DNA of 64,000 nucleotides, taken from the NCBI GenBank assembly GCA_030626475.1, contig DAOUOW010000001.1:108-64107 (forward strand). Reading direction: 5' to 3'. Shown piece after piece: positions 12,687 through 44,445 of this stretch (the stretch's first letter is position 1; each line of letters begins with the position of its first letter). A model generated the notes under the pieces. That model was not told the DNA's origin, ran no database searches, and saw only the letters and a list, made by a program, of their open reading frames with translations. Source of the stretch: Chloroflexota bacterium. GTDB taxonomy: Bacteria; Chloroflexota; Dehalococcoidia; E44-bin15. The translations under genes were made by a program, and so were the position numbers.

Positions 12687-14420
12687 TTATCGCCCCCTCA
12701 CCAGGGACCAAAGGGTGTGTAGCGGCCTTAGCGTGATCAAGGCTGTAGGCAGCTCCAGCTCCCGTTTCTCACACACCGTGGAGATGCTCACCCGGTCGAT
12801 GGTGGGTTTAAGCTGAGACAGTTGCTCCTCGGGGCTTGGTTGGCCGTCGCAAACTATGTCATCGATGCGATGGAGCATTTCCAGGGCTGTGTTTATGCGC
12901 TCTTCTGTGGCTTCAGCCACCTTCCTGGAGATCAGGTCATGCTTTGCCTTGAGCCGATTGAGGCGTAGCCCTGCCTCATAGGAGGTGTCGACGATGTCCT
13001 GGCGGCTCATCCACTGCGTCTCGTAGTTGAGGGTATACTTCCAGCTGGGCTCAAGCAAAGCCTGGCGATGCTCCTCCAGACTGCGGAAAAGAACTCGGTA
13101 GCCATGGCGCTCGGATTCTTCAAAGGCGAGGCTGCCGGGGTCGAGAAAGGGCGCCAGGGGGGAGATGAAGGGGGAAAATCGCTCGTCCCCGCTGAACTTG
13201 TCAAGCAGATAGCCGCAGTAGTCGATGGTATCCAGCACCGATTTCGGCGTCTGTTGAGGGATGCCGATCATGTAGAAAACATCCAGCCGGCCACAGCCTG
13301 CTGACAGGGCAGCCTCCAGGGTTTCCTCCAGATCCTCGTTGGAGTAATGCTTGCCTGTAGCCTTTCGCACCTCGGGGTCGTGGGTTTCGGGCGAGATTTG
13401 GAGGCAGAATCCAGGGCAGGCCTCGCCAATTTTGCTCAAGAGTTCCCTGGGCACAGGGCGGAATAACTCAAAGATAATCTGGTTTTTCACTCGCTCCTCG
13501 GCCAGTAGCTGGAGAAGATGATGCGCATATTCCTCCCCTGGCTGGCGGATATCGCCCAGGATGAAGATTGGGCCTCTGCTAATGAGGCTTATCCTTTTCA
13601 CATCATAGGCCACTGCCTCCGCACTGCGGAAGGCGGGGTAGTCTCGATTAAACTTTCGACGGAAGGCGGCAGCAGAGCCGCCGCAAAAGACGCAGTTCTG
13701 GGTGCAGCCGCGACAGGTGAGCACTGCGGTGATGGGATAGCGCAGCCAGCGCCTGAAGGGAAGGTAACTGGCAAGGTCGCGGTATCTGATTACTGATTGC
13801 ACCGTATAGTCATAATAACGAACCATGACATCGCTGAGCTCACTAGGCACATGTGAAAGCGGGTTTTGGTGCACCTCACCCTTCTCGTCGCGCCAGGTAA
13901 GATTGGGCACTTGTTGCAGTTCTTTCCCCTTCAGGATGCAATCCATCAATTGGCGGAAGGGCTCCTCGGTGGTATCGCCGCGGAGGACATAATCGACCTC
14001 GGGATAATTCATTAGCTCCTGATGGTAGCAAGAGGCGCTGAGGCCGCCGATAACCAATTTTGATTCCGGGTGATGGCTTTTCACCAGGCGGGCGATCTCG
14101 ATGGCACCGTGGGCGTGGGGGAGCCAGTGGAGATCGATGCCATATACCGGCGCATTTAGATTCTGGATCAGCTTTGGGACGTCAAAATTTTGGTCTCTGA
14201 GCATCCGCACCGCCAGATTGAAGATGCGCACCTGGTAGCCAGCGCGCTCCAGATACTCAGCGATGCTGGTAAATCCTATGGGATACATTTCGAAGATGGG
14301 AGATGGAGGAATGAGGTCGCTTATGGGGCCATAGAGAATCGTCCGCTGGCGGAAGTCATAAACAGTGGGAGGGTGAAGCAGAATTAGGTCCGGTTGGGGC
14401 AATGAAAAGGCTCCTTTCAA
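12687..14420 (-). CDS. B12-binding-domain radical SAM protein
   Basis: N-terminal cobalamin-binding-like Rossmann region. CTQNCVFC (CxxxCxxC) radical SAM cluster motif. 577 aa. Confidence 0.8.
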   Translation of the reverse strand: MKGAFSLPQPDLILLHPPTVYDFRQRTILYGPISDLIPPSPIFEMYPIGFTSIAEYLERAGYQVRIFNLAVRMLRDQNFDVPKLIQNLNAPVYGIDLHWLPHAHGAIEIARLVKSHHPESKLVIGGLSASCYHQELMNYPEVDYVLRGDTTEEPFRQLMDCILKGKELQQVPNLTWRDEKGEVHQNPLSHVPSELSDVMVRYYDYTVQSVIRYRDLASYLPFRRWLRYPITAVLTCRGCTQNCVFCGGSAAAFRRKFNRDYPAFRSAEAVAYDVKRISLISRGPIFILGDIRQPGEEYAHHLLQLLAEERVKNQIIFELFRPVPRELLSKIGEACPGFCLQISPETHDPEVRKATGKHYSNEDLEETLEAALSAGCGRLDVFYMIGIPQQTPKSVLDTIDYCGYLLDKFSGDERFSPFISPLAPFLDPGSLAFEESERHGYRVLFRSLEEHRQALLEPSWKYTLNYETQWMSRQDIVDTSYEAGLRLNRLKAKHDLISRKVAEATEERINTALEMLHRIDDIVCDGQPSPEEQLSQLKPTIDRVSISTVCEKRELELPTALITLRPLHTLWSLVRGR

Positions 14421-14534: not shown

Positions 14535-14906
14535 TTGCTGGAGAACTTCGGTTACATCGGGATTTTTCTCGTTGCCGCCCTTCTTTTCACCTTCACCATG
14601 ATAACGCTTCCCCTTCTCCTCAGGCGTTTCCGTATCGTCCCCAATAAGCCCAACCCGGTAAAGAGCTCCACCTATGAATGTGGCATGGATACCGTGGGCA
14701 AGTCCTGGATTCAATTCAACTTCCGCTACTATTTTTACGCCCTGCTCTTCGTGATCTTTGATATCCAGGTGGTTTTTGTCTATCCCTGGGCGGCAGCCAT
14801 GGGAGAGCTTAAGCTCTTTGGCCTAGTAGTGATGGCGGCTTTCTTTTTGATCGTGATTGTCGGCTTTGTCTATGCCTGGAGAAAGGGGGTTCTGGAATGG
14901 AAATAG
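14535..14906 (+). CDS. nuoA: NADH-quinone oxidoreductase subunit A
   Basis: 123 aa with 3 TM helices and a YECG motif. TTG start after AAAGGAG. Confidence 0.9.
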
Positions 14907-15493
14907 AGATACCCTACTCCAGCAGCAAGCTCGATCACGCCGAGGGTCTTGAGATCGAGGCCCTGATTGAAGTTTCCCAGGAGCCTTACCCCGATCCGGT
15001 CGCCTGGCTGGAGGAGGAGGTGAAGAGGAATGTCCTGGTTACCTCCATTGATCACATCTTAGATTGGGGCCGACGCTACTCAGTCTGGCCGATAAACTTC
15101 GGGCTAGCCTGTTGCGCCTTCGAGATGATCGCCACCGCAGTATCCAGGTTTGACATCGCTCGCTTCGGCATGGAGCTTCTGCGCCCCTCGCCGCGCCAGG
15201 CAGACCTCATGATTGTAGCCGGAACCGTGACCTGGAAGATAGCGCCAGCGCTGAAGCGAATCTATGAGCAGATGCCAGAGCCAAAGTGGGTCATCGCCAT
15301 GGGGGTATGTGCCATCAGTGGCGGGCCTTTTCGCGACTCCTACAGTGTAGTGCCGGGGGTGAACCGCATCGTGCCCGTGGATGTCTATGTCCCCGGATGC
15401 CCACCGCGTCCCGAGGCGCTTCTCCACGGGATTATCATGCTTCATGAGAAGATTAGCAGGGAGACTTTGGCGAAGGGCAGGGAGGATGACTAA
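14897..15493 (+). CDS. nuoB: NADH-quinone oxidoreductase subunit B
   Basis: [16 protein letters not shown] and VPGCPP motifs, which are the N2 cluster ligands. Confidence 0.9.
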
Positions 15494-15941
15494 GCCCCTT
15501 TCCCCCTCAGAGGTCGCCAGGCAAATAGGGGAGCACATCCCTGATGCTGTCACCGATTCCAATGAAAGCGCCGTCTATGTCAAGGGTGAAGCCCTTTTCG
15601 AGGTGGCGCGCCTGCTTAAAGAGAATCTTGACCTCGACTACCTCGCCACCATCACCGCTGTAGACTTTTTGGAACATTTTGAGCTGATTTATCACTTGAC
15701 CTCGATTACAAAAAACCACAGCGTTATCCTAAAGACACGGTGCGAAAAGGGCGAAAAGGGCGAAAAAGTGCCTTCGGTGGTCAGCTTATGGCAGGGTGCC
15801 GATTTACAGGAAAGGGATATCTTTGACCTCATGGGAATCGCCTTCACCGGGCATCCCAATCTCAAGCGCATCTTCCTCTGGGATGGATATAAGGGGCACC
15901 CGCTGAGAAAGGACTGGTCGAAAAATGGCGCTCAAGACTGA
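15486..15941 (+). CDS. nuoC: NADH-quinone oxidoreductase subunit C
   Basis: NuoC 30-kDa family pattern ([10 protein letters not shown]). The ATG at 15486 follows GGAGG and overlaps the nuoB stop; the ORF-track start at 15381 is internal to nuoB. Confidence 0.85.
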
Positions 15942-17028
15942 GCCAGTAATGATCAACTTCGGTCCCCAGCACCCTTCAACCCACGGGGTGTTTCGAATGA
16001 GGATAACCTTTGATGGCGAGGTGATCGTCGATCTGGAGCCGGTATTTGGCTACCTCCATCGCGGCATTGAGAAGCTGGCCGAGTCCAAGACCTATACCCA
16101 GGTCATTCCCTATACCGATAGGCTGGACTACCTTGCTTCCATGTCCAACAACTTCGCCTATGTGATGGCAGTGGAGAAGCTGGCCGACATCGAGGTTCCG
16201 GAGCGGGCCCAATATCTGAGGGTGATCATGGCCGAGCTAATGCGCATCGCCAGTCACCTTATCGCCGTGGGCGCCTTTTTCAACGACCTGGGTGCCTTCT
16301 TCACCCCCTTTATGTACATGTTCCGCGAGCGTGAGAAGATCCTGGACCTGTTTGAGATGGTATGCGGGCAGCGCCTGACCTATAACTATATGCGCATTGG
16401 CGGGGTGAGCCACGACATTCCCGAGGAATTCTTGCCCGCTCTCAGGCGGTTTATCGATGAAATGCCCGGTTTCATTGAGGAATACGATTGGCTCCTCGCT
16501 GAGAACGAAATCGTGCTGGCGCGCACCAAGGGGGTGGGGGTTTTGCCTCCCGAGAAGGCGATCAATGCCTCGGCCAGCGGTCCCATGCTGCGTGCCAGCG
16601 GGGTGAAATGGGATATTCGCAAGGCTGACCCCTATTCGGTATATGATCGCTTCGACTTTGCAATCCCGGTGGGCACGATGGGCGATGCCTATGACCGCTA
16701 CTGGGTGAGGATTCAGGAGATCACGCAGAGCACGCACATCGTGAAGCAGGCTATAGAGCAGCTTCCAGTAGGGGAGATTCGAACTAAGGTTCCCACCATG
16801 CTGCGACCGCCCAAAGGGGAGGCTTATGCCCACATCGAGTCGCCGAGGGGTGAGCTGGGTTTCTACCTGGTGAGCGACAACTCCCCCTACCCCTATCGGT
16901 TCAAGGTCCGCGCCCCATCGCTGATAAACCTCACCGTGCTCCGCGACCTGTGTGTCGGCTGGAAGCTGGCTGATGCCATCGCCATCTTGGGCAGCATTGA
17001 CATCGTTTTGGCCGAGGTGGACCGCTAG
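15925..17028 (+). CDS. nuoD: NADH-quinone oxidoreductase subunit D
   Basis: [14 protein letters not shown]-terminus, 367 aa. Confidence 0.9.
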
Positions 17029-20000
17029 TGAATGTTCTGGAGCAATTTCACGATTGGCTCATGAACTACTGGCCCTCCTGGGCAGCTTACCTGGTGCCGG
17101 CGCTGGTTGCCTTCGTCGTCCTCTCCGCCTTCATCACACTGGTAGTGATGGCCTTTATCTATATCGAGCGTCGGGGAATAGGCAGGTTCCAGATTCGCCG
17201 TGGCCCCAACCGTGCCGGCCCCTTTGGCATCCTGCAACCGGTGGCGGATGCGATAAAGGTGCTGGTAAAGGAAGACATTATCCCCGCCGCCAGCGATCGC
17301 TGGATTCACTGGCTAGCTCCAGTCATCGCCTTCGTCCCCGCTATGGCAATCTTTGCTGTTATACCCTTTGAGGGGAGGGCAATCTTTGCCGACCTTAACA
17401 TCGGCATTCTTTACATAATCGCTATCTCCTCCCTGGGCGTGATCGGGGTTTTTATGGCCGGCTGGGGATCCAATAATAAATTTTCGATGATCAGCGCCAT
17501 GCGCTCCATAGCCCAGATGGTAAGCTATGAAATCCCACTGGTGCTTTCCATTGCCGGGGTGCTCATAATCGCCGGATCCCTCTCCATGACGAGCATCGTA
17601 GAGGCACAGAATGTCCCCTTCTTCCTGCTCCAACCCCTGGGATTCCTGATCTTCTTCATCGCCGCTGCCGCCGAGCTCCAGCGCACCCCTTTCGACCTCC
17701 TGGAAGCGGAGTCCGAGATCGTCGCCGGCTACCATATCGAATACTCGGGGATGAAGTTCGCCCTCTTCTACCTCGGGGAGTACACCCATGCCTTCGCCAT
17801 TTCTGCCATCGTGGCCACCCTTTTCCTCGGTGGCTGGCACGGCGTGCTGCTGCCCGGCGCCCTGTGGTTCATGATAAAGGTATTTTTGGTCTTTGGTGCT
17901 CTTATCTGGGTTCGCAGCACACTGCCCCGACTGAGGGTGGACCAACTGATGGCCTTTGCCTGGAAATGTCTTTTCCCCCTGGCGGTGATCAACCTCTTTG
18001 TCACCGCAATCGAGGTTGTCATTTGGCCTGAGTTTCCATGGCAGCTTATGATCCTCAATATCCTCATTGCCGCCCTGTTGATAGTCCTGTGGTCGGGCTT
18101 CTTCAGGGTAGCAGGGGAGAGGGTGCGCTTCAAAAGATACGGGCGAGGCATTGGCAAGGGCATGACGGTAACCTTCGGGCATCTCTTTCGCCCCCCGATC
18201 ACAGTACAGTATCCAGAGCAGAGGCTCACCGTTTCCAAGCGGGCCCGAGGTAACCGGTTTATTTGGGATGATAGTAAGCGTGCCCCCTGTGTGTTGGCGT
18301 GTCCTGCCAGGGTGGATGCTCAGGGCTATGTCACCCTTATTTCCCAGGGCAAGTTTAAGGAGGCACTTGAACTCGTCAGGCGAAATCTTCCTTTCCCAGC
18401 CGTCTGTGGTAGAGTTTGCACTCATCCGTGCGAAACAGCATGCAATCGGGGGAAGATAGATGAACCCATCGCTATCCGCGACCTCAAGCGCTTCCTGGCT
18501 GACTACGAAATGAGAGCGGAGGAAGAAGAGATAACCCCTGCTCCACGCACCAAAGAGGAAAGGGTGGCTATTATTGGCTCAGGTCCAGGAGGTTTAACTG
18601 CAGCTCGTGATCTGGTAAACATGGGCTATGGGGTGACCGTCTTTGAAGCGCTCCCTATTCCTGGCGGGATGCTGGCTGTGGGTATTCCAGAGTATCGCTT
18701 GCCCAAGGACATACTTCAAAAAGAGATCGAGGCTATTCAAAAACTCGGTGTCGAGATAAGGCTGAACAGCCCTGTAGGCAAAGATGGCCTGACCCTGGAG
18801 GCTCTTTACAAGCAGTATGAAGCAATTCTTGTGGCTGTGGGTGCCCACGACAGCATGAGACTGAATATCCCCGGTGAGGAATTTGAGGGCGTGTATCACG
18901 GTGTTTCCTTCCTCAGAGATGTAAGCCTGGGTAAAGAGGTCAAGGTGGGGGAAAGGGTGGCCATAATTGGCGGGGGTAACGTAGCTATCGATGCTGCCAG
19001 AACAGCCCTCCGACTTGGCTCCAAGGAAGTAATCATTGTCTATCGGAGGTCAAGGCAGGAGATGCCCGCCAGCGAGGAGGAGATAGAAGAGGCTGAGCAT
19101 GAGGGGATCAAGCTCAATTATCTGGCGGCGCCGGTCAAAGTCCTGGGCAAGCAAGGAAAGGTAGTGAGCTTGGAGTGTATTCGGATGGAGTTGGGCGAAC
19201 CTGATGACAGCGGCAGAAGGCGCCCAATACCTGTTGAGGGGTCTGAATTTGTCCTTGACATCGACATGCTCATCCCGGCCATCGGTCAAACCCCTGACCT
19301 CGCCTTCCTACCAGGGGACCATGAATTCCTCATAACAGCTAGAGGAACGTTTGAGGCCGATCCTGCCTCTTTAGCTACTAATATACCTGGCATATTCGCC
19401 TGCGGCGATGCCGTAACCGGACCGGCTACAGCTATTGAGGCGGTAGCAGCTGGAAGCAAAGCCGCCATCGCCATTGATATCTACCTCCGTGGGGAAGAAG
19501 TGGTGCTAGAGGAAAGGCTACCGCTACATGAGGTAGTTATTGAGGATATGGATACCAGTGACATAGTGAGTAAGGATAGGCAGCCTCTGCCTCATCTCTC
19601 CCTCAGGGAAAGAACCCCCGGATTTAAGGAAGTAAATCTCGGCTTTACAGAGGAAATGGCTGCAGAAGAAGCCAATAGGTGCCTCAACTGTGGTGTTTGC
19701 TCTTGGTGTCAACAGTGTGAAAAGGCATGCCCCCAGGGGGTTATCAAGATAGAATGGGACCGCACTCAGGAGGAGGAGCTAGGGGTGAAAAGGTTTGACA
19801 TCGACCTTACAGCCTGCATATTCTGTGGCCTGTGCATCGAGGCATGCCCCGCCCACAGGCTTTATTTCGAGAGAGGCTATGAGACATCCACCTACTGCTT
19901 CGGAGACATAGCGCTGGATAAGGAGGGGCTAAGACCATCCCCCCAGAAGCAGCCGAGCGCCTATGCCCGACCCGAGCTTGAGCCGACCTTGCCCCAACAG

Positions 20001-20039
20001 ACCCTTCTCGTAGACCGCACCAAGGTGAGGAAAGGATAG
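17028..20039 (+). CDS. nuoH/nuoI: NuoH fused to a NuoI carrying an embedded GltD/NfnB-like Fe-S/FAD/NAD(P)H oxidoreductase module
   Basis: Residues 1 to about 330 are a complete NuoH (RRGPNRAGPFG...RVDQLMAFAWK). An extra hydrophobic helix and a basic linker follow. The NuoI N-terminus (MTVTFGHLFRPPITVQYPEQ) then leads into a GltD-like module with an Fe-S region (CVLACP...CGRVCTHPCETAC), two Rossmann motifs (IIGSGPGGLTAA, IIGGGNVAIDAA) and FACGDAVTG. The ORF ends in a canonical NuoI 2x[4Fe-4S] core (CSWCQQCEKACP...CIFCGLCIEACP). There is no stop codon anywhere in this frame; an in-frame ATG at 18162 could also give a separate 625-aa NuoI-GltD product. Confidence 0.8.
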   Translation: MNVLEQFHDWLMNYWPSWAAYLVPALVAFVVLSAFITLVVMAFIYIERRGIGRFQIRRGPNRAGPFGILQPVADAIKVLVKEDIIPAASDRWIHWLAPVIAFVPAMAIFAVIPFEGRAIFADLNIGILYIIAISSLGVIGVFMAGWGSNNKFSMISAMRSIAQMVSYEIPLVLSIAGVLIIAGSLSMTSIVEAQNVPFFLLQPLGFLIFFIAAAAELQRTPFDLLEAESEIVAGYHIEYSGMKFALFYLGEYTHAFAISAIVATLFLGGWHGVLLPGALWFMIKVFLVFGALIWVRSTLPRLRVDQLMAFAWKCLFPLAVINLFVTAIEVVIWPEFPWQLMILNILIAALLIVLWSGFFRVAGERVRFKRYGRGIGKGMTVTFGHLFRPPITVQYPEQRLTVSKRARGNRFIWDDSKRAPCVLACPARVDAQGYVTLISQGKFKEALELVRRNLPFPAVCGRVCTHPCETACNRGKIDEPIAIRDLKRFLADYEMRAEEEEITPAPRTKEERVAIIGSGPGGLTAARDLVNMGYGVTVFEALPIPGGMLAVGIPEYRLPKDILQKEIEAIQKLGVEIRLNSPVGKDGLTLEALYKQYEAILVAVGAHDSMRLNIPGEEFEGVYHGVSFLRDVSLGKEVKVGERVAIIGGGNVAIDAARTALRLGSKEVIIVYRRSRQEMPASEEEIEEAEHEGIKLNYLAAPVKVLGKQGKVVSLECIRMELGEPDDSGRRRPIPVEGSEFVLDIDMLIPAIGQTPDLAFLPGDHEFLITARGTFEADPASLATNIPGIFACGDAVTGPATAIEAVAAGSKAAIAIDIYLRGEEVVLEERLPLHEVVIEDMDTSDIVSKDRQPLPHLSLRERTPGFKEVNLGFTEEMAAEEANRCLNCGVCSWCQQCEKACPQGVIKIEWDRTQEEELGVKRFDIDLTACIFCGLCIEACPAHRLYFERGYETSTYCFGDIALDKEGLRPSPQKQPSAYARPELEPTLPQQTLLVDRTKVRKG

Positions 20040-20041
20040 CG

Positions 20042-20527
20042 TTGGAAGTAGCCTTCTGGATTCTGGCAGTAATTAGTGTAGCCTCAGCCCTGGCGGTGGT
20101 TTTCCTCCGCCATATCTTCCGTGCTGCCCTATTTCTGGTTCTGTGCTTCTTCGCCATAGCTGGAATCTACGCCACCCTTAATGCCGATTTTCTAGCCGCA
20201 GCCCAGGTGCTGATCTATGTCGGCGCAATAGCGGTACTTATCATCTTTGCCATCATGCTCACCAGAGAGACTCAGCAGGGAAGTCCTTCAGGCAGGTTTC
20301 GCCTTATCGCCTTTCTGGTGGGGGCTATGTTCCTGGTCACCATGATCCTGGTGGTGACCGGCACTGACTGGCAAGTGATCACCGAGGCTCCCACTGAGCC
20401 CACAACCTCATCCCTCGCTCAGGCACTTTTTAGCCGCGAGGAGGGCTTTGTCCTCCCCTTTGAAATAGTGGCAGCGCTTTTGCTGGCGGCGGTGATCGGA
20501 GCCATCGCCCTGGTTAGGGAGAAATAG
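20042..20527 (+). CDS. nuoJ: NADH-quinone oxidoreductase subunit J
   Basis: 161 aa with the NuoJ TM pattern. TTG start after AGGAAAGGA. Confidence 0.85.
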   Translation: MEVAFWILAVISVASALAVVFLRHIFRAALFLVLCFFAIAGIYATLNADFLAAAQVLIYVGAIAVLIIFAIMLTRETQQGSPSGRFRLIAFLVGAMFLVTMILVVTGTDWQVITEAPTEPTTSSLAQALFSREEGFVLPFEIVAALLLAAVIGAIALVREK

Positions 20528-20833
20528 ATGACTGTCGGACTTGAGCATTTTCTCATCCTTTCCGCAATCCTTTTCTCCATAGGTTTATATGGCGCTCTGG
20601 CGAAGCGGAATGCGGTGGTCATTCTGATGTCCATCGAAATCATGCTCAATGCAGTGAATATCGCCATGGTTGCCTTCTGGCGGTATGGCCATCTCATCAC
20701 CGGCCAGGTGTTTGCCATCTTCATTATGGTGGTGGCCGCCGCTGAGGCTGCTGTGGGCTTGGCAATAATAATTTCCATTTATCGCAGTCGGGAAACGGTG
20801 GATGTGGAGAAAATTGACCTGATGAAATGGTAG
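20528..20833 (+). CDS. nuoK: NADH-quinone oxidoreductase subunit K
   Basis: 101 aa, 3 TM helices, conserved Glu-containing helices. Confidence 0.9.
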   Translation: MTVGLEHFLILSAILFSIGLYGALAKRNAVVILMSIEIMLNAVNIAMVAFWRYGHLITGQVFAIFIMVVAAAEAAVGLAIIISIYRSRETVDVEKIDLMKW

Positions 20834-20851
20834 CATATTGAGGAAGGACTG

Positions 20852-22786
20852 ATGCCATCTGGTGTACCGTTAGCTATTTTCCTTCTCCCCTTCTTCTCGT
20901 TCATTGTTATCTCTTTTGTCATCAGGCCCTTCCTCAACAGCAAGCCGCAGCTCAGTGGGTACATCACCATTACCTCCATTGGCACCTCTCTAATTCTTTC
21001 CCTTTGGGTCCTGGCTGAGGTAAGCAGTGCTCCGGGGCACATGCTCTCCATGCCCGACTACGAGTGGCTGGTCATCGGCGATACCGTAATTCGGTTCGGG
21101 GTAACCGTAGATGCACTGGCTGCGATTATGCTCATCGTGGTCACCTCAGTCAGCTTGCTGGTTCAGGTCTACTCCCAGGGTTACATGCATGGCGACCCCG
21201 GCTATTCCCGCTACTTCGCCTTCATGTCGCTATTCACCGCCTTCATGCTGGGGCTGGTCTTGGCCGATAACCTCATCATACTCTATGTATTCTGGGAGGG
21301 GGTGGGACTCTGCTCCTATCTCCTTATCGGCTTCTGGTTCCACCGACCGGCGGCAGCAAGGGCGGCGACCAAGGCGTTTATCGTCACCCGCATTGGCGAT
21401 TTCGGCTTCTTGGCCGCCATCCTTTTCCTCTACTTCAAGACGGGCACTTTCGACATCGGGGAGCTCCACCACCTGGCCCTGGCGGGCGCCATTGGGGGCA
21501 CAGTCCTCACCTGGGCTGCAATCGGCGTCTTCTCCGGGGCAATAGGCAAGTCAGCGCAATTCCCGCTCCATACCTGGCTTCCCGATGCCATGGAGGGTCC
21601 GACCCCGGTGAGCGCCTTGATCCATGCAGCCACCATGGTGGCTGCCGGCATATATCTGGTGGCTCGCATGTTCCCTATATTTGCCTCCTCCCTTACAGCA
21701 GTAACCACAGTGGCGGCAATCGGAGGCTTTACCGCTATCTTCGCTGCCACCATGGGCCTGGTGATGAACGATATTAAGCGGGTACTGGCCTACTCCACCA
21801 TCAGCCAATTGGGCTACATGATGCTGGGTTTAGGAGTGGTAGGCATAGGCGTGGCCAACGATGCCATTTCCTTAGAGGTTGGTTTGGGGCTAGGTGTGGC
21901 AGTAGGCATTTTCCATCTGTTCAATCACGCCTTCTTCAAGTCGCTCCTCTTCCTGGGCGCAGGGAGTGTTAATCATGCCACCGGCACCTTTGACATTCGG
22001 GAGATGGGCGGACTGAGAAAGGTGATGCCCTGGACTTATGCCACCTTCCTCATCGCTTCCCTCAGCATCGTCGGTATCTGGCCTCTGGCCGGGTTCTGGA
22101 GCAAAGAGGGCATCCTGGACCATGCCTGGGACCATCAAACCGCATTATTCTTCCTGGCTATGATCACGGTCTTCATGACCGCCTTCTACATGTTCCGCCT
22201 AGTCTTCCTCACCTTTGCTGGAGAGTATCGCGGTGGCAATGCTGGCCACGGTGGGGCAAGCGCCCACGCTCCCTCACTTCGGGAGTCACCCCTGATGATG
22301 GTGGCGCCCATGGGCTTATTGGCCATCCTCGCCGTGATCTCGGGGTGGCTGCCGGTAAGCAGCTTCTTAGGCGGGAAATCGGAGAGCTTCTTCGGTGCCC
22401 TTGCCCACCCTATGGCCTGGGTCTCCATGGTATTGGCTGGTTTGGGCATCCTTCTTGCCTACGCCCTGTATAGCGCAAGATGGCTTTCTGTGGAATCATT
22501 GCGGCGGCGCTTTGCCCCTCTTCATACGCTCTTTTCCCGGAAGTACTGGTTCGATGAGCTCTACGAGAGGGTGATCGTGGTCAGGGTTCTGGTGGACGGG
22601 ATTTTCGCTCTCCTTAACTGGTTTGATACCCGCATTGTCGATGGCGTGGTGAACGGCGTGGCTGGTGGCACCATAGCGGCGGGTAGAGTGATAAGAAGAC
22701 TGGAGACAGGACAATTGCAGGTCTATGGGATTGCCATCTTTATCGGCGTCTTGGCTATTGTCGCCTGTTTCTTAATCTTTGGTTAG
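20852..22786 (+). CDS. nuoL: NADH-quinone oxidoreductase subunit L
   Basis: 644-aa antiporter-like subunit with a C-terminal long-helix region. Confidence 0.9.
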   Translation: MPSGVPLAIFLLPFFSFIVISFVIRPFLNSKPQLSGYITITSIGTSLILSLWVLAEVSSAPGHMLSMPDYEWLVIGDTVIRFGVTVDALAAIMLIVVTSVSLLVQVYSQGYMHGDPGYSRYFAFMSLFTAFMLGLVLADNLIILYVFWEGVGLCSYLLIGFWFHRPAAARAATKAFIVTRIGDFGFLAAILFLYFKTGTFDIGELHHLALAGAIGGTVLTWAAIGVFSGAIGKSAQFPLHTWLPDAMEGPTPVSALIHAATMVAAGIYLVARMFPIFASSLTAVTTVAAIGGFTAIFAATMGLVMNDIKRVLAYSTISQLGYMMLGLGVVGIGVANDAISLEVGLGLGVAVGIFHLFNHAFFKSLLFLGAGSVNHATGTFDIREMGGLRKVMPWTYATFLIASLSIVGIWPLAGFWSKEGILDHAWDHQTALFFLAMITVFMTAFYMFRLVFLTFAGEYRGGNAGHGGASAHAPSLRESPLMMVAPMGLLAILAVISGWLPVSSFLGGKSESFFGALAHPMAWVSMVLAGLGILLAYALYSARWLSVESLRRRFAPLHTLFSRKYWFDELYERVIVVRVLVDGIFALLNWFDTRIVDGVVNGVAGGTIAAGRVIRRLETGQLQVYGIAIFIGVLAIVACFLIFG

Positions 22787-22808
22787 AAAATAATAGGAGA
22801 GAAGGCTT

Positions 22809-24293
22809 TTGGACTTTCCTTATCTCTCAATAATCGTCTTTCTCCCCATAATCGGGGCTATTCTCATTGCCCTTCTGCCTCACGCTGATCCGAGGCGGAT
22901 AAAGCTCACTGCGGCCTTTTTCACCCTGGTCACTTTTGCCCTGTCTTTGTCTTTGTTCTTCATGTTTGACCAGTCACTGGAAGGCGCCCAGTTCGTGGAA
23001 AGGGCATCGTGGATTCCCCCCCTCGACGCTCAATACTTCCTCGGCATCGATGGGCTGAGCCTGCCGATGCTTATTCTGGCCACATTCCTGGGCTTCATCG
23101 CTGTCCTCGTCTCATGGAAGATTGACCTCAGGGTTCGGGAATACTTTGCCTGGCTCCTGGTGCTTGAAACCGGTGTCCTGGGTGTCTTTTGCTCCCTGGA
23201 CCTGCTGCTCTTCTTCCTCTTCTGGGAAGTGGAGATCCTGCCCATGTATCTCTTGATCTCCATCTGGGGCACGGGGAGGAAAGAGTATTCAGCAATGAAA
23301 TTCGTTATTTTTACCCTTGCCGGCAGTGCCATGATGCTGGCTGGAATTCTGCTCCTCTATTTCCATGGCGGCACCTTCGACATGATGGAGCTGGCCGGGA
23401 TGGGGCTTGAGGGAGCCATAAGCACCCTGCTGGCCACAGCGATCTTCTTCCTCCTCTTCATCGGCTATGCGGTTAAGCTGCCTGTTTTCCCCTTTCACAC
23501 CTGGCTGCCGGATGCCCATACCGACGCTCCCACGGCGGTAAGCGTCATCCTCGCCGGGATACTGCTCAAGATGGGTGGCTACGCCATTATTCGCGTCTGC
23601 GTCAGCATATTCCCCGGCGTATCGCAAGACTATGCTGTGCTTCTCGTGGCTTTAGCTTTGGTCAATATTCTTTATGGGGCGGCAGTAACCTTTAGACAGC
23701 GGGACCTGAAACGGCTGATTGCATATAGCAGCATCAGCCATATGGGCTATGTGCTCTTGGGCATCTTTGCCCTGAGCCAGGTGAGCATGACCGGTGCCAC
23801 CCTCCAGATGTTCAGCCATGGCCTGATTACCGGGCTTCTCTTCGCCCTTGTCGGGCTGGTCTACAACAAGACGCATGTCAGGGATATCACCCAGCTTGGC
23901 GGTCTTGCCCGCCGCATGCCAATCATTGCTGTCGTCTTCAGTGTCGCCGGGCTTGCTGCCCTTGGGCTTCCCGGCACCAGCGGCTTCGCTGCTGAGTTTC
24001 TGGTATTCCTCGGCAGCTTCAAGAGCACATTGGTTGATGGCATCCAGACCTATGCCATCCTTGGCATCGTGGGCATCGTGCTCACCGCAGGATATATCCT
24101 TTGGCTATTGCAACGAGTTTTCTATGGCCCAGCCAAGGCCCAGTATGATGGGGTGCCCGATGCCGATAGGCTTGAGCGGTTTACCATCTTCTCCATGGTG
24201 GCGGTGATCATGCTCATCGGCATCTATCCCGCAGTGCTAACCGATATCATCAAGACGGGGGTGTCGCCAATAATGGCCTCTTTGGGCCTGTGA
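22809..24293 (+). CDS. nuoM: NADH-quinone oxidoreductase subunit M
   Basis: 494-aa antiporter-like subunit with a WLPDAH motif. Confidence 0.9.
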   Translation: MDFPYLSIIVFLPIIGAILIALLPHADPRRIKLTAAFFTLVTFALSLSLFFMFDQSLEGAQFVERASWIPPLDAQYFLGIDGLSLPMLILATFLGFIAVLVSWKIDLRVREYFAWLLVLETGVLGVFCSLDLLLFFLFWEVEILPMYLLISIWGTGRKEYSAMKFVIFTLAGSAMMLAGILLLYFHGGTFDMMELAGMGLEGAISTLLATAIFFLLFIGYAVKLPVFPFHTWLPDAHTDAPTAVSVILAGILLKMGGYAIIRVCVSIFPGVSQDYAVLLVALALVNILYGAAVTFRQRDLKRLIAYSSISHMGYVLLGIFALSQVSMTGATLQMFSHGLITGLLFALVGLVYNKTHVRDITQLGGLARRMPIIAVVFSVAGLAALGLPGTSGFAAEFLVFLGSFKSTLVDGIQTYAILGIVGIVLTAGYILWLLQRVFYGPAKAQYDGVPDADRLERFTIFSMVAVIMLIGIYPAVLTDIIKTGVSPIMASLGL

Positions 24294-24348
24294 CAAGGTG
24301 TCTTATGCAGGAAAACGATTTATGGGCTAATTATCGAGAGGTCTTGAA

Positions 24349-25764
24349 TTGAACGTTTATCTGCTATCGCCTGCGATGAGCCTCTGTGGCCTGGCCATAG
24401 TGGTGATCCTGCTCGACCTCGTCCTCAAGCGGAAGTGGATCCTGGGAGCAGTGAGTGTCGCTGGACTCATTGTCCCCGCCGCCTTTACCCTTGCCCTGTG
24501 GGGAAGAGAGGAGACCTCCTTTAATGGAATGCTGGCGGTGGACGAGTTCTCCCTGTTCTTCAACCTCTTTTTCCTGGTGTGCGCGGCATTGGTCATCCTC
24601 TCCTCTATGGATTATGTATCCAAATTCAAGGCGTTTCAGGGAGAGTACTATGCCCTTGTTCTCCTCGCTGCTACGGGGATGATGCTTATGGCATCCACCA
24701 GGGAGTTGATCTCGGTCTATGTTGCCTTGGAGTTAACCGCCATTTCCCTTTATGCCTTGACTGGCTTTTTGAAGGACCCCAAGTCCAGCGAAGCGGGGAT
24801 AAAATATCTCCTCCTCGGGGCGGTGGCCAGCGCCGTTTTGCTCTACGGCATGGCCATGGTTTTCGGACTCAGCGGCAGCACCCATTTTAAGGATATCGCT
24901 GCGGCAATCCCGGGAGGGGTGTTGGATAATCCAGCACTGCTCATGGGAATGGTGTTATTGGTGGCTGGCTTTGGCTTTAAGATTGCTACCGTCCCCTTCC
25001 AGATGTGGGTCCCCGATGTCTACGAAGGAGCGCCGACGCCGATAACCGCCTATCTCTCCGTTGCCAGCAAGGCTGCCGGGTTTGCCGTAATCCTCAGGGT
25101 TTTCTATGAGGCCCTGGGGCCGGTGAGCCTGGACTGGGGGATAATGTTTGGTGTCCTAGCCGCCATTACCATGACCCTGGGCAACGTGGTGGCTATCGCC
25201 CAGACGAACATAAAGCGTATGCTGGGGTATTCCAGCATCGCCCAGGCGGGCTACCTGATGATAGGACTGGCTGCCGTCAGCGCCCTCGGTCGCAGCGGCC
25301 TGGTCTTCTTCCTCATTGCCTATGCTCTTACCAATCTGGGAGCATTTATCGCCATCATCGCCATCTCCAACAAGACCAATAGCGACCTCATCAGCGACTA
25401 CTCAGGAATGGCAAAGCGGGCCCCGCTTCTGGCATTAGCCCTTGGCCTGTGCCTCATCTCCCTTATCGGCATCCCGCCCACGGCTGGGTTCATGGCCAAA
25501 ATATACATCTTCAATGCCGCGGTAGACCACGACCTGATGTGGCTGGTGATCGTGGCTGTAATTAATACCGCCATTTCCGCCTACTACTATCTAAGGGTGG
25601 TCAGGGTAATGTTTCTTGGCGCCCCCACATCAGAGGAGGCGATTCCCTCCTCAGGGGCGCTTCGTACCGCCCTCTCTGTTGCCTGCCTTGGTGTCCTCTT
25701 GCTCGGTGTTTACCCCTGGGCACTGCTGAAAATTGCTGAAACCGCTGTTAACGTGTTTCCTTGA
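24349..25764 (+). CDS. nuoN: NADH-quinone oxidoreductase subunit N
   Basis: 471-aa antiporter-like subunit with MWVPDVYEGAPTP. Confidence 0.9.
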   Translation: MNVYLLSPAMSLCGLAIVVILLDLVLKRKWILGAVSVAGLIVPAAFTLALWGREETSFNGMLAVDEFSLFFNLFFLVCAALVILSSMDYVSKFKAFQGEYYALVLLAATGMMLMASTRELISVYVALELTAISLYALTGFLKDPKSSEAGIKYLLLGAVASAVLLYGMAMVFGLSGSTHFKDIAAAIPGGVLDNPALLMGMVLLVAGFGFKIATVPFQMWVPDVYEGAPTPITAYLSVASKAAGFAVILRVFYEALGPVSLDWGIMFGVLAAITMTLGNVVAIAQTNIKRMLGYSSIAQAGYLMIGLAAVSALGRSGLVFFLIAYALTNLGAFIAIIAISNKTNSDLISDYSGMAKRAPLLALALGLCLISLIGIPPTAGFMAKIYIFNAAVDHDLMWLVIVAVINTAISAYYYLRVVRVMFLGAPTSEEAIPSSGALRTALSVACLGVLLLGVYPWALLKIAETAVNVFP

Positions 25765-25853: not shown

Positions 25854-26669
25854 TTGAAAAAGGTTGGAATTCTCTACCATCCCAAGATCGCCGCTGCTGG
25901 TGCCCTGGCAGAGGAGTTAGCGAGCTTTCTGCCTTCCCTTAAGACCTCAGTTTGGCTCTGCTCCGCCTGGGAGGAGGAGAAGGTCAAGACACAGGTAGAA
26001 GGTACAGAACTGATCCTCAGCGTTGGCGGCGATGGCACCATCCTCAGGGCTGCCCGCGCCGTTGTCCCCCGGGCTATTCCCATCGTTGGCATAAATCTGG
26101 GTAGGCTCGGATTTATGACTGAGCTCAGCGCCGATGAGGCGCAGGAAAAGATTCCCGCTTTTTTGGCCGGAGAAGGCTGGATCGATGAACGGGCTATGCT
26201 CCAGGCCGAGCTAGAGGGCAAAGCTCCCCTCCATGCCTTGAATGACGTGGTTGTAGGGCGGGGAGCCATATCCCGGGTGGTGTGGGTGGATGTCACTATC
26301 GATGGTGCCCCTCTAACCACTTATAAGGCCGATGGGGTTATCGTGGCCACTGCCACAGGGAGCACGGGCTACTCTCTGGCTGCTGCTGGCCCCATTCTCT
26401 ACCCCTCTTCCAGGGATATATTGCTCAACCCTGTTTCTCCTCACCCTATCTATGCCAACCCGACCTTGGTTCCACCAACGGCCACCGTGGAACTGAAAGT
26501 GCATACTGACTATCAGGCGATGCTCAGCATCGATGGCCAGATAGATATCGAGCTGAAGAGCGGGGACAGCATCCTGGTCAGGCTTAGCCCTCATGTTACC
26601 CGTTTTCTCAGGGCCCAGCCGCCCACTTTTTTCTATAGTAGTTTGATGGAGAGATTGCTACAGAGGTGA
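25854..26669 (+). CDS. nadK: NAD+ kinase
   Basis: GGDGTIL and NDVVVGRG motifs. TTG start. Confidence 0.85.
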   Translation: MKKVGILYHPKIAAAGALAEELASFLPSLKTSVWLCSAWEEEKVKTQVEGTELILSVGGDGTILRAARAVVPRAIPIVGINLGRLGFMTELSADEAQEKIPAFLAGEGWIDERAMLQAELEGKAPLHALNDVVVGRGAISRVVWVDVTIDGAPLTTYKADGVIVATATGSTGYSLAAAGPILYPSSRDILLNPVSPHPIYANPTLVPPTATVELKVHTDYQAMLSIDGQIDIELKSGDSILVRLSPHVTRFLRAQPPTFFYSSLMERLLQR

Positions 26670-26673
26670 TGAA

Positions 26674-27147
26674 ATGAAGGTGGAAAAGGCGCGCATCGAC
26701 GACATACCTCAAATTCATCGGCTGGTCAATCACTTTGCCGATAAGGGGGAGATGTTGCCCCGCGCCATAAGCGAGCTCTATGAGAACATCAGGGACCTAT
26801 TTGTGGTCAAAGATGGCGACCAGCTAATTGCCTGTGCTGCGTTCCATATATTCTGGTCCGATCTGGCCGAGATCAGGTCCGTCGCCGTTGTCGAGGAGAA
26901 GCAGGAGCAGGGGGCTGGTGCCTTGCTCATTCAGGCCTGCCTTGAGGAGGCGAGAGACCTGGGCCTTGAGACTGTCTTTTGCCTTACCTATAAGCCAGAT
27001 TTCTTCGAGCGCTTTGGTTTTCATCGAGTGGACGTTATGAACCTGCCGCGCAAGGTCTGGGGGGAGTGCCAGCGCTGCCCCAAGTTCCCCAACTGCGATG
27101 AGATCGCTCTGGTCTATAAGCTGGAGCACCCCAGGAGCAGCCCTTAA
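26674..27147 (+). CDS. GNAT family N-acetyltransferase (ArgA-like acetyl-CoA domain)
   Basis: 157 aa with a GNAT fold pattern (RSVAVVEEKQEQGAGALL). Confidence 0.65.
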   Translation: MKVEKARIDDIPQIHRLVNHFADKGEMLPRAISELYENIRDLFVVKDGDQLIACAAFHIFWSDLAEIRSVAVVEEKQEQGAGALLIQACLEEARDLGLETVFCLTYKPDFFERFGFHRVDVMNLPRKVWGECQRCPKFPNCDEIALVYKLEHPRSSP

Positions 27148-27689
27148 TGAAGGAGCGAACCCTGGAGAGCGAGCGAATCTATGAAGGACGTGAGGTCTCC
27201 CTTAGAGTGGATACCGTTGAGTTGCCGTCCGGCAGGAGGACGACGCGAGAGGTGGTGGAGCACGTTGATTGTGTCGCCGTTGTCGCCCTGGATTCTGAGG
27301 ATAATGTTATCCTGGTGCGCCAGTTTCGCCACCCTGCGGCGAGGGTGCTTCTGGAGATTCCAGCAGGGGGGATTGAGCCCGGTGAGAAGCCCTCAGATAG
27401 CGCAATCCGAGAGCTGGAGGAGGAGACCGGCTACCATGCCCGTAAGCTGGAGCATCTTGGCGGGTTCTACAGTAGCCCCGGCTTCTGCACCGAATATTTG
27501 CATCTCTTCCTCGCCACCGAGCTTGGCCAGGCTAAACCCCTTGCTCACCAGGACGAGATTATCGAGGTGGTGCGCCTCCCCTTAAGGGAGATGCCAAATC
27601 TTATAGCATCGGGCGAGATCTGTGATGCCAAGAGCATCGCTGGTCTTCTCAGTGTTCTAATCCGAGACTTAAGTTATAAAGGGGTATAG
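27147..27689 (+). CDS. NUDIX hydrolase (ADP-ribose pyrophosphatase-like)
   Basis: Nudix box GGIEPGEKPSDSAIRELEEETGY. Confidence 0.8.
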   Translation: MKERTLESERIYEGREVSLRVDTVELPSGRRTTREVVEHVDCVAVVALDSEDNVILVRQFRHPAARVLLEIPAGGIEPGEKPSDSAIRELEEETGYHARKLEHLGGFYSSPGFCTEYLHLFLATELGQAKPLAHQDEIIEVVRLPLREMPNLIASGEICDAKSIAGLLSVLIRDLSYKGV

Positions 27690-31674: not shown

Positions 31675-32223
31675 TTATCTGCCGTACTTTGCTTTCCCTT
31701 CCTGGTAGAGGTCGCCTCCGTGGGCGTCATTGACCACAGTAGCGGGGAAATTCTCCACCTCAAGGCGCAGGACAGCCTCGGCGCCCAACTCCTCATAGGC
31801 CACCGTATCCGACTTCTTGATCGCCCTGGCGATAAGGGCACCGGCACCGCCGATGGCGGCGAAATAGACCGCCTTGTGCTTTTTGATCGCCTCCTTCACC
31901 TCCTGGGAGCGAGACCCCTTACCTATCATCCCCTTAAGACCCTCGGTCAGCAAACGCGGTGAATAGGCATCCATGCGCCCACTGGTGGTGGGGCCAGCGG
32001 CACCGATAACCTGCCCCGGCTTGGCCGGTGAGGGGCCCATGAAATATATTGTCTGCCCCCGGACATCAAATGGCAAATCCTGTCCCTGATCCAGGGCCTC
32101 GACCATTCTCTTATGGGCTGCATCACGGCCAACATACATGACACCAGTAAGCAAAACGTTGTCCCCGGCTTTGAGGTCTCTTATGGCCTCGTCTGTCAAA
32201 GGTAGTGTAACTTTCTTCTGCAT
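31675..32223 (-). CDS. fumB: Class I fumarate hydratase / Fe-S hydro-lyase beta subunit
   Basis: 182 aa matching the tartrate/fumarate hydro-lyase beta family (GPTTSGRMD, AIGGAGA). Confidence 0.8.
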   Translation of the reverse strand: MQKKVTLPLTDEAIRDLKAGDNVLLTGVMYVGRDAAHKRMVEALDQGQDLPFDVRGQTIYFMGPSPAKPGQVIGAAGPTTSGRMDAYSPRLLTEGLKGMIGKGSRSQEVKEAIKKHKAVYFAAIGGAGALIARAIKKSDTVAYEELGAEAVLRLEVENFPATVVNDAHGGDLYQEGKAKYGR

Positions 32224-32319
32224 TGCTATCCTCCTTAGACCGAAGCGAGAACAATCGAAAGACTACCCCCGCGCCAGTTCGAATATCCTCTAGCTCCCTC
32301 CCAAATTTAGTGAAACCTA

Positions 32320-33162: not shown

Positions 33163-33167
33163 CTCTC

Positions 33168-33530: not shown

Positions 33531-33539
33531 TGCACACCT

Positions 33540-33983: not shown

Positions 33984-33986
33984 AGG

Positions 33987-35702: not shown

Positions 35703-35975
35703 TCTACCCCCTTATCGACATCAGCAAAATGGCTCCGAATGAAATATGAGACTACACTGAGCCCTGGAGCCATCTCGCTGAAAGCTCGACGGTCATAATT
35801 TTGCCTTTTTCTTCACACCCTGTGATTTTGGCGGGGGGAGTTCCATGGCAAAGGACATAAGATACCTTGGAGAGCATTGACCACGCTAATAGTACAAGGA
35901 CATGATCTCCCCCCATCTCCTTAACCTTTGCCACAAATTCGCTTTGCAGCCTGTTACTGGAAATGGTGAGCGCCT

Positions 35976-36821: not shown

Positions 36822-36836
36822 AGCCCTTACCCTTAA

Positions 36837-37763: not shown

Positions 37764-37767
37764 CGTC

Positions 37768-38850: not shown

Positions 38851-38864
38851 GTCGCCGCTCCTTT

Positions 38865-44408: not shown

Positions 44409-44445
44409 TTCCCCGCCTTTAGTTTGTGATGATATGCACATTCTT

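Follow-up and report, generated by a model that had tools for sequence, protein, structure and literature searches.

In the 64,000-nucleotide stretch of Chloroflexota DNA analysed here (the window; GTDB lineage Dehalococcoidia, E44-bin15; contig DAOUOW010000001.1, positions 108 to 64,107), one unbroken open reading frame (ORF; 17028..20039, forward strand, 1003 residues, GTG start) was found to join the complex I subunits NuoH and NuoI in a single polypeptide, whose NuoI part carries an entire flavoprotein module. The order of its segments is NuoH with an extra ninth helix, the NuoI N-terminus, a ~470-residue NfnB/GltD-like Fe-S/FAD/NADPH module and the NuoI 2x[4Fe-4S] core. Insert-bearing NuoI is termed NuoI* in the following. 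The ORF is part of an operon of the order nuoA-B-C-D-[H·I*]-J-K-L-M-N (14535..25764, forward strand), in which all 11 core Nuo genes form one cluster with H and I fused. It is considered probable, with moderate confidence, that this operon encodes a respiratory complex I of the 11-subunit, nuoEFG-less type with an electron-input module built into NuoI, which would function as a proton-pumping NADPH:quinone oxidoreductase.

The fused NuoH-NuoI polypeptide

Pfam searches with the 1003-residue product identified NADHdh (residues 29-327, E 2.4e-118), Fer4_20 (417-497), Pyr_redox_2 (512-809) and Fer4_7 (891-942). Among the NCBIfam models, those of NuoH span residues 2-360 (best 23-332), GltD/NfnB-type models match residues 412-945, and the NuoI model TIGR01971 matches in two stretches, namely the N-terminus and 890-966; its whole-protein score (72.7) stays below the cutoff (113) because the insert splits the match. 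When the sequences of solved structures were searched, residues 890-975 matched NdhI, NDUFS8 and Nqo9 at about E 1e-16, whereby the alignment continues past the Cys motifs. The hallmarks of NuoI were all identified, i.e. the amphipathic N-terminal helix, TVxYP, RFRG, two CxxCxxCxxxCP motifs, a C-terminal YE..Y...L..DKE segment and the slot after nuoH and before nuoJ. The lineage-specific C-terminal tail is common to the window ORF, to plain NuoH-NuoI fusions lacking the insert (P0040, P0132) and to the stand-alone NuoI* proteins described below as type B. Assignment of the C-terminal ferredoxin to a GltD-Fer4 protein of the PRK12771 type was ruled out, as the NuoI/NDUFS8 match exceeds the Cys motifs and the tail is common to the insert-less P0040 and P0132.

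Made from the letters alone, the first-pass annotation had proposed a NuoH-NuoI fusion in one 1003-residue frame, with a GltD/NfnB-type segment in its middle. Pfam, NCBIfam and the structure-database matches of the flanks bear this out, the profile searches identifying the middle segment as GltD/NfnB type and the flanks as NuoI, and the motifs it quoted (MTVTFGHLFRPPITVQYPEQ, GSGPGG and GGGNVA) are all present in the ORF. Its statement that the module stands in place of the NuoI ferredoxin core holds for the presence of the module but not for the replacement, since the module lies upstream of an intact core.

The NuoH portion possesses nine hydrophobic helices as judged from hydropathy, the ninth of which (~residues 338-360) is also found in the plain fusions P0040 and P0132 and brings the chain back to the cytoplasmic side, where NuoI must sit. 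Directly at the junction, the sequence GGGGAGAGG is followed by GTG (V366), which aligns with Met1 of stand-alone relatives starting 'MRFERYG...'; being located at the position of the ancestral nuoI start, this element is regarded as the relic of the ribosome-binding site and start codon of a once separate nuoI. Initiation at V366 could yield a separate NuoI* beside the fusion. In one relative (L087) nuoH and nuoI* overlap by 11 nt, hence a small indel would be enough to fuse them.

These traces of once separate genes, together with the possibility of internal initiation giving NuoI* alone, are what speaks for the ORF being an artefact or a decaying gene, i.e. for a missed stop codon or frameshift joining nuoH, a gltD-like gene and nuoI, or for an inactive remnant module. 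This explanation is considered exceedingly improbable. The identical 1003-residue protein was found on at least 4 contigs of separate assemblies, with a GenBank entry from a subsurface metagenome annotated merely as 'subunit 1' (MBA7596236.1), and about 20 protein clusters with 66-92% identity keep the full-length, ~1004-residue one-ORF architecture. Three Dehalococcoidia metagenome-assembled genomes (MAGs) that serve as species representatives (L001-L003) possess the same operon; they were obtained by a genome-collection scan with patterns specific to close relatives, type B and stand-alone type A forms being outside its reach. The ratio of nonsynonymous to synonymous substitution rates (dN/dS; Nei-Gojobori, against L001, L002 and L003) was ~0.18 overall, 0.07-0.18 over the NuoH/NuoI junction and ~0.2 in the module, and all cofactor motifs are conserved; purifying selection thus acts on all segments of the fused ORF. 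The frame that encodes the module also encodes the N- and C-terminal halves of NuoI, one on each side of it, which leaves no room for a separate gltD gene. Consequently an assembly join or frameshift, for which the first-pass annotation had suggested to check, was ruled out, and the survey of related genomes that it had suggested revealed the same fusion in the clusters and MAGs named above.

The inserted module

The identity of the middle segment, which had been proposed as a GltD/NfnB-type Fe-S/FAD/NAD(P)H module, is established by several lines of evidence. Fer4_20 scored 89.4 bits (cutoff 25.8), Pyr_redox_2 123.4 bits (cutoff 26.1) and PRK12771 542.5 (cutoff 516). Residues 418-940 match NfnA of NfnABC (9bov_A, 9n5u_A), StnC (8oh5_C), T. 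maritima NfnB (4ylf_B), P. furiosus NfnI-L (5jca_L), GltD and DPD, with E values from 1e-144 to 1e-106 for the best solved relatives of the module (9bov_A, 9n5u_A, 8oh5_C, 4ylf_B and 5jca_L). An AlphaFold2 model gave the module a predicted local distance difference test score (pLDDT) of 80-97, the relocated segment described next included, and Foldseek with this model returned 9bov_A, 8oh5_C and 9n5u_A as top matches, followed by NfnI-L, NfnB, GltD and DPD.

Alignment with Nqo9, P0040 and relatives revealed that the module starts directly after the 'RxRG' strand of NuoI (…KRARGNRFIWDDSK|RAPC421VLAC425P…) and ends with …EEANRC885LNC888, two residues ahead of C891, the first cysteine of NuoI motif 1 (C891-x2-C894-x2-C897-x3-C901-P; motif 2 comprises C930/C933/C936/C940-P). 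Residues 846-905 match the N-terminus of NfnI-L (5jca_L, residues 7-58; E 2.4e-8), to which the N-termini of NfnB and GltD are likewise homologous; with ~60 residues ahead of motif 1 being homologous to the canonical N-terminus, the module is circularly permuted. The relocated N-terminal segment covers residues 846-888 and ends with R-C885-LN-C888, so that the canonical 'RCLxC-x6-C-x3-CP' motif is split, its C-x3-CP half opening and its RCLxC half closing the insert. The canonical linear order of GltD and NfnB, with the N-terminal helix and RCLxC-x6-C-x3-CP first, is thus absent from the window module, and a simple head-to-tail insertion of a canonical GltD was ruled out by the permutation. 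StnC (GltD domain, residues 102-565), NfnA and those HdrA proteins that carry an NfnB insert share this permuted topology. As a consequence of the permutation, C885 and C888 correspond to the cluster ligands of the canonical 'RCLxC', and by analogy with these they would ligate the module's distal cluster. Together with the cysteines of the Fe-S subdomain (C421, C425, C460, C464, C468 and C472) they give eight ligands for two [4Fe-4S] clusters, and 16 cysteines are available for four such clusters in the NuoI* portion. The FAD site (GSGPGG) is located at ~residue 515 and the NADPH site (GGGNVAID...YRRS) at ~residues 645-676. In 56 sequences, 15 of the 16 Fe-S cysteines (those common to the stand-alone type A forms), GGGN and YRR are invariant, and YRR[ST] was found in 21 of 21, 43 of 43 and 113 of 118 members of the three NuoI* groups. 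The basic residues of YRR are taken by us to confer specificity for the 2'-phosphate of NADPH.

The host complex

For NuoB, the best PDB matches are complex I NuoB proteins (8e9g_B, E 8.7e-61, as compared to 3e-33 for MbhJ), and its N2 ligand pattern CC...C...C is retained (GLACCAFEM...GVCAISGG...PGCPP). NuoD was matched to T. thermophilus Nqo4 at E 2.7e-118, well above FHL and above MBH/MBS (1e-57 to 1e-63); it has no NiFe ligands and keeps the equivalents of His38 (QHPSTHG) and Tyr87 (DRLDY) in T. thermophilus numbering. Judged from these matches and residues, the subunits around the fused protein make up a genuine complex I of the quinone-reducing kind. An Mbx-like or hydrogenase-type complex was ruled out, given that both NuoD and NuoB are much closer to complex I than to MBH/MBS and that the standard NuoL/M/N set is encoded.

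As claimed by the first-pass annotation, nuoE, nuoF and nuoG were not found in the operon, and this holds for the whole 64-kb window. Likewise no NfnA/PyrK-like partner gene ([2Fe-2S] plus FAD) was found in operon or window, no GltB partner gene near the operon, and no NdhS/V/O-like ferredoxin-docking subunits were evident in the operon. A cluster for the tricarboxylic acid (TCA) cycle is encoded on the reverse strand of the window (31675-40616), comprising fumarase beta and alpha, sdhB-D-C-A, malate dehydrogenase, isocitrate dehydrogenase and large and small subunits of the aconitase family. The succinate dehydrogenase/fumarate reductase (sdhA-C-D-B) is membrane-anchored via Sdh_cyt, and from this and the TCA genes it follows that the organism has a quinone pool.

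Distribution and evolution of insert-bearing NuoI

An exhaustive HMMER search of 1.84 billion representatives, complemented by follow-up searches and motif analysis, identified two types of NuoI*. In type A the module lies ahead of motif 1, as in the NuoH-fused family of the window and in at least 43 stand-alone clusters, the latter being labelled, where named, as Actinobacteria/Actinomycetota or Firmicutes (MAG). In type B, motif 1 precedes and motif 2 follows the module; at least 118 stand-alone clusters belong here, labelled, where named, as Chloroflexota, Dehalococcoidia or Dehalococcoidales, together with the partial NuoH-fused P0031, which is a truncated sequence. Stand-alone NuoI* proteins of ~620-680 residues (P0169, P0171, P0198) align in the order NuoI N-terminus, module, NuoI core. 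Seven further loci from several lineages were examined, and in each of them NuoI* takes the place of nuoI within a nuo operon; nuoEFG was not found within 10 kb of it in these seven, where the contig reaches that far. The gene orders are nuo(A)BCDH-[I*]-JK plus five antiporter-like genes (L081, L082, L084), nuoABCDH-[I*]-JKLMN (L083, L087), [I*]-JKLMN with the contig beginning at I* (L085) and nuoBCD-[I*]-AHJK… (L086).

Some of these loci show features of their own. Five Proton_antipo_M genes and a ~100-residue gene replace the L/M/N set in L081 (12985-21259), L082 (12655-21077) and L084 (12855-21169), which suggests a higher ion/electron stoichiometry or another driving force. In L084 (1-4649), a GltD-like protein fused to an FlpD/MvhD domain, MTHFR (MetF), DUF5981 and a CdhD/pterin-binding gene adjoin the NuoI* operon, i.e. 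a Wood-Ljungdahl and MetFV-Hdr-like context in which the GltD module is employed as well. In P0151 (621 residues) a NuoI/HycF-like N-terminus leads straight into the module via one shared CxxCxxCxxxCP, and the C-terminus holds the RCxxC closure and a ferredoxin motif; this protein may represent an Mbx-like/Thermotoga-type GltD subunit.

Comparison of the window subunits with type B complexes of Dehalococcoidia gave identities of 73% for NuoD, 67-82% for NuoK, 61-68% for NuoL and 65-70% for the NuoI N-terminal part, as compared to 30-55% with type A complexes of other phyla. The window module, in contrast, shares only 53-56% of its residues with type B modules and 45-54% with stand-alone NuoI* modules at large (45-56% to any other NuoI* module), while it reaches 62-73% with the modules of Dehalococcoidia fusions of the HdrA type (P0025-30) and the DHOD type (P0033/34), which form its sister group in a neighbour-joining tree. 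Bootstrap values were 100/100 for monophyly of the NuoH-fused family and 56/100 for the HdrA/DHOD sister grouping. With module and host phylogenies being discordant, these comparisons imply at least two independent captures, which drew on different module lineages and hit different sites; more captures are hinted at by the stand-alone type A modules, whose placement is scattered. A single origin of the insert was ruled out by the two insertion sites and by the window module being nearest to HdrA/DHOD types while the other subunits are nearest to type B. In one host lineage, NuoI has thus acquired or re-acquired the module at a different site and from a different source, whereby replacement and de novo capture both fit the bootstrap of 56/100. 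A ferredoxin-type Cys motif is already present at the end of the donor modules, which makes the Cys motif of NuoI itself a natural place for recombination, and from the repeated captures at two positions it is argued that selection favours the union of NuoI and module. More generally, the permuted NADPH module was taken up by HdrA, by NuoG-like scaffolds, by DPD/DHOD-like proteins and repeatedly by NuoI, each time spliced at a ferredoxin Cys motif.

Proposed mechanism and its alternatives

The suggested mechanism assumes that NADPH binds to the module, where FAD would accept the hydride. Electrons would then leave FAD singly through the two [4Fe-4S] clusters of the module and would move on to N6a and N6b of NuoI, to N2 of NuoB and finally to (mena)quinone at the NuoD/NuoH site, a route which presupposes occupied cofactor sites, suitable inter-cluster distances and a forward direction of electron flow. 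Quinone reduction would drive proton pumping by NuoH/A/J/K/L/M/N, and the NuoH-NuoI fusion, enabled by the ninth transmembrane helix, would tether the whole input arm to the membrane arm. The complex would thereby act as NADPH:quinone oxidoreductase, e.g. feeding the fumarate reductase/succinate dehydrogenase encoded in the window. In ferredoxin motifs, clusters ~12 Å apart are bound by the third and the fourth Cys, and by this analogy C885 and C888 would bring the distal cluster of the module within tunnelling range of the motif-1 cluster. A precedent is given by StnC and NfnA, whose permuted module has a non-bifurcating FAD at which NADPH is oxidised, the electrons then being handed on one by one along a linear series of clusters (PMC10482914, PMC11829005). 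The earlier proposal that the embedded flavoprotein feeds NAD(P)H electrons to the NuoI clusters is backed by comparative evidence, namely motif conservation, RCLNC adjoining motif 1, this precedent and recurrence in nuoEFG-less operons of several phyla. Extended to the whole class, the reading would be that NuoI* defines a multi-phylum class of self-sufficient complex I, in which a permuted NfnB-type module functionally replaces NuoEFG, giving an NADPH-specific, proton-pumping NADPH:quinone oxidoreductase that has at least two independent origins, which differ in insertion site and in the module lineage drawn upon; the chances of this being correct are seen as evenly balanced.

A number of points weigh against the proposed mechanism. 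The distal cluster is placed within tunnelling distance of the motif-1 cluster from sequence adjacency only (C888 being two residues from C891), motif 1 is assumed to bind N6a, the entry cluster, in line with the T. thermophilus assignment, and a preference for NADPH over NADH is predicted from the YRR motif and homologues. For the NuoI core, AlphaFold2 reached a pLDDT of no more than 45-68, also when a deeper alignment was supplied. In characterised homologues, GltD-like modules have [4Fe-4S] clusters of very low potential (PMC8097209), which renders the kinetics uncertain. Furthermore, the view is limited to 64 kb, so that nuoEFG, an NfnA-like partner or ferredoxin-docking subunits could lie elsewhere in the genome, and a Chloroflexi genome with nuoEFG in a separate operon was reported by Sewell et al. 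(PMC5736913). Finally, menaquinone biosynthesis was not demonstrated within the 64-kb window.

Two alternatives leave the protein as described and differ in its physiology. One of them assumes the same wiring in a mainly ferredoxin-driven complex, with the module serving as NADP+-reducing outlet (a membrane-bound FNR), as route from quinol to NADP+ at the cost of proton-motive force, as redox valve or as auxiliary donor port. It is in line with the reversibility of the GltD-like module in Stn and NfnABC, which produce NADPH in vivo (PMC10482914, PMC11829005), with the conventional view of 11-subunit complexes of these lineages as ferredoxin- or F420-dependent (PMC9686372, PMC4959651) and with the interpretation of the GltD-related subunit of Mbx-like operons as NAD(P)+-reducing site (PMC4758237). 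In L081, L082 and L084 the five antiporter-like genes suggest a driving force larger than that of NADPH-to-menaquinone, and one of these stand-alone type A operons (L084) adjoins Wood-Ljungdahl genes. The window complex, however, has an ordinary L/M/N set, lacks evident docking subunits in its operon and is accompanied by TCA and Sdh/Frd genes which make and use reducing equivalents via quinone, and this alternative was considered unlikely, bearing in mind that the direction of electron flow is not dictated by sequence, which counts against NADPH oxidation by the complex as well. The other assumes a membrane-bound, flavin-based bifurcating or confurcating complex I, in which the FAD of the module would retain the bifurcating chemistry of NfnB and NADPH oxidation would be coupled to the simultaneous reduction of quinone (via NuoI) and of ferredoxin or another partner. 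Although the module is ~45% identical to the bifurcating NfnB and NfnI-L subunits and shares the conserved 'IPEYRLP' context, in which the Arg contacting flavin N5 in NfnB resides (PMC10482914), its nearest permuted relatives StnC and NfnA have an FAD that terminates a linear chain and does not bifurcate. In addition, a second exit path of the NfnA/PyrK type is absent from operon and window, and the [4Fe-4S] pair, which forms the low-potential branch in NfnB, leads to a high-potential acceptor here. Bifurcation was hence judged to be quite improbable, and a proton-pumping NADPH:quinone oxidoreductase is the reading retained.

Relation to known systems

Complex I is modular and is found with alternative input devices, i.e. 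NuoEFG, FpoF or the docking of ferredoxin. With the canonical enzyme (NuoA-N; Nqo1-14 in T. thermophilus) the window complex shares full Q- and P-modules, the N2 ligands, the quinone-site His/Tyr and both intact NuoI cluster motifs. It differs in having no NuoE/F/G in operon or window, in a NuoI that is split by the ~470-residue flavoprotein and in NuoH and NuoI forming one polypeptide via the added ninth helix, and the donor is predicted to be NADPH via FAD instead of NADH via FMN. Relatives without NuoEFG include NDH-1 of cyanobacteria and chloroplasts, which uses ferredoxin, and archaeal Fpo, which uses FpoF and F420H2. The 11-subunit relatives, including those of Dehalococcoidia and the 'Nuo11' of OPB41, possess the same 11 core genes and pose the same question of the donor (PMC4959651, PMC9686372, PMC5736913); here, a pyridine-nucleotide flavoprotein is covalently placed in NuoI, which would make a separate docking subunit or soluble ferredoxin needless.

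With StnC of Sporomusa ovata StnABC and NfnA of Bfu-type NfnABC (8oh5, 9bov, 9n5u), its top sequence and fold matches, NuoI* shares the permuted module inside a host Fe-S scaffold. There, however, a soluble NuoG/Fdh-like subunit acts as host, its partner being a bifurcating core of the HydBC/NuoEF type, and neither quinone reduction nor ion pumping takes place. Nearest in sequence are HdrA proteins with an NfnB-like insertion (HdrA9-11 of ANME-1; Dehalococcoidia P0025-P0030), whose modules form the sister clade noted above, share the six-Cys junction RCLNCG-C-SWC-xxC-xxxC and interrupt a 2x[4Fe-4S] ferredoxin domain (PMC9012536), the host being soluble HdrA of the heterodisulfide-reductase type and not complex I. 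NfnAB/NfnSL and GltD have the same fold and cofactor set (two [4Fe-4S], FAD, NADPH); in contrast to these, the N-terminal helix and 'RCLxC' of the window module moved to the C-terminal end, and no NfnA or GltB gene is nearby. A GltD-type NAD(P)(H) site at the position of NuoI was described for Mbx-like operons of Thermotoga and some proteobacteria (Degli Esposti 2015, PMC4758237). Those are of Mrp-Mbx type, non-quinone and read as ferredoxin:NAD(P)+ oxidoreductases, whereas the window encodes a true Nuo with quinone site and L/M/N, a distinction drawn from the published description of the Mbx-like operons.

Genomic context

The features identified are compiled in the table below. The listed nuoC ORF overlaps nuoB by 113 nt, and its true start is probably near 15486, as gene calls on identical contigs give 151 residues. 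An NAD kinase gene located 90 bp downstream of nuoN is kept in L001, L002 and L088 and is also present near the type B locus L085; it is an associated neighbour and a candidate part of the system. In the window (25854-27689) it is followed by GNAT and NUDIX genes, an arrangement conserved in relatives, and in type A operons of other phyla (L081, L082) nadC, encoding quinolinate phosphoribosyltransferase, follows the nuo cluster. These neighbours may reflect a functional link of NAD(P) supply to an NADPH-dependent complex or plain synteny. Divergently upstream of nuoA, a B12-binding radical SAM gene (12687-14420, reverse strand) was identified, which recurs upstream of NuoI*-bearing nuo operons in relatives of the window (L002, L089) and in the distant type A locus L081.

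Table. Location of the nuo genes, the segments of the fused ORF and further genes in the window
Feature	Position	Strand	Basis
nuoA	14535..14906	+	Pfam Oxidored_q4, E 9.5e-34
nuoB, carrier of cluster N2	14897..15493	+	Pfam Oxidored_q6
nuoC	15381..15941	+	Pfam Complex1_30kDa
nuoD, quinone-site subunit	15925..17028	+	best PDB match T. thermophilus Nqo4
NuoH portion of the fused ORF	17028..18122, aa 1-365	+	Pfam NADHdh, hydropathy profile
relic nuoI ribosome-binding site and start (V366)	18114..18125	+	sequence
NuoI N-terminal segment: amphipathic helix, TVQYP motif, RxRG strand	18123..18260, aa 366-411	+	TIGR01971 first stretch; aligns with Nqo9, P0040
circularly permuted NfnB/GltD-like module	18261..19691, aa 412-888	+	Pfam Fer4_20 and Pyr_redox_2, PDB sequence matches, AlphaFold, Foldseek
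NuoI 2x[4Fe-4S] core	19692..19952, aa 889-975	+	Pfam Fer4_7; NuoI/NdhI/NDUFS8 matches
NuoI C-terminal tail (PSAYARPELEPTLPQQTLLV...) and stop codon	19953..20039	+	lineage-specific; sequence comparison
nuoJ	20042..20527	+	ORF; Pfam Oxidored_q3 on identical contig
nuoK	20528..20833	+	ORF; Pfam Oxidored_q2 on identical contig
nuoL	20852..22786	+	ORF; Pfam Proton_antipo_M/N on identical contig; orthologues in L001-L003
nuoM	22809..24293	+	ORF; Pfam Proton_antipo_M/N on identical contig; orthologues in L001-L003
nuoN	24349..25764	+	ORF; Pfam Proton_antipo_M/N on identical contig; orthologues in L001-L003
NAD kinase	25854..26669	+	Pfam NAD_kinase
Na+-translocating oxaloacetate decarboxylase beta subunit (membrane energetics)	5680-6810	+	
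biotin-carrying carboxylase alpha-like protein (membrane energetics)	40624-42576	-	
carboxyltransferase (membrane energetics)	42858-44468	-	
H+/Na+-pyrophosphatase (membrane energetics)	56640-58685	-	

Implications

To our knowledge, no characterised complex I uses NADPH. A true Nuo complex with a GltD/NfnB-type module in NuoI was not found described in the open-access full-text literature, in agreement with the first-pass annotation, which had regarded the architecture as undescribed; yet it is not unique to the window, being part of a large, unrecognised family with frequent occurrence in metagenomes. GltD-like modules are known to plug into other Fe-S scaffolds, i.e. GltB, DPD, NfnA/StnC and HdrA (PMC8097209, PMC9012536). 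The component pieces are hence of known kinds, and the novelty lies in a NuoI with such a module in a true Nuo. What the window contributes beyond this is the fusion to NuoH and a type A insert in a complex of the Dehalococcoidia type.

At present, NuoI* proteins are labelled "NuoH", "FAD-dependent oxidoreductase", "glutamate synthase" or "formate dehydrogenase beta", with the consequence that metabolic reconstructions miss these proteins and may report nuoI as absent. For a cultured OPB41 strain (Anaerosomatales isolates) the nuo locus was listed as NuoACDHJKLM, with no NuoI or NuoB recognised (PMC9686372), and a NuoI* annotated as FAD-dependent oxidoreductase could explain the NuoI gap. An 11-subunit complex I lacking NuoEFG is encoded by many bacteria and archaea. 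Papers on the carrier lineages state that the input module of the 11-subunit Nuo is unknown (PMC4959651, PMC5736913, PMC9686372), the donor of NuoEFG-less complex I usually being given as "probably ferredoxin" or "perhaps F420" (PMC4959651, PMC9686372).

The finding reported here reveals a recurrent capture of an NADPH module by NuoI and makes the long-standing question of the electron donor of NuoEFG-less complex I directly testable. If the proposed reading holds true, an NADPH-specific donor site built into NuoI would answer this question for a large subset of 11-subunit complexes, from Dehalococcoidia and other subsurface anaerobes, and a proton-pumping NADPH:quinone oxidoreductase would change models of energy conservation and NADPH turnover in abundant subsurface Dehalococcoidia as well as in Actinomycetota-labelled, Firmicutes-labelled and other MAGs.

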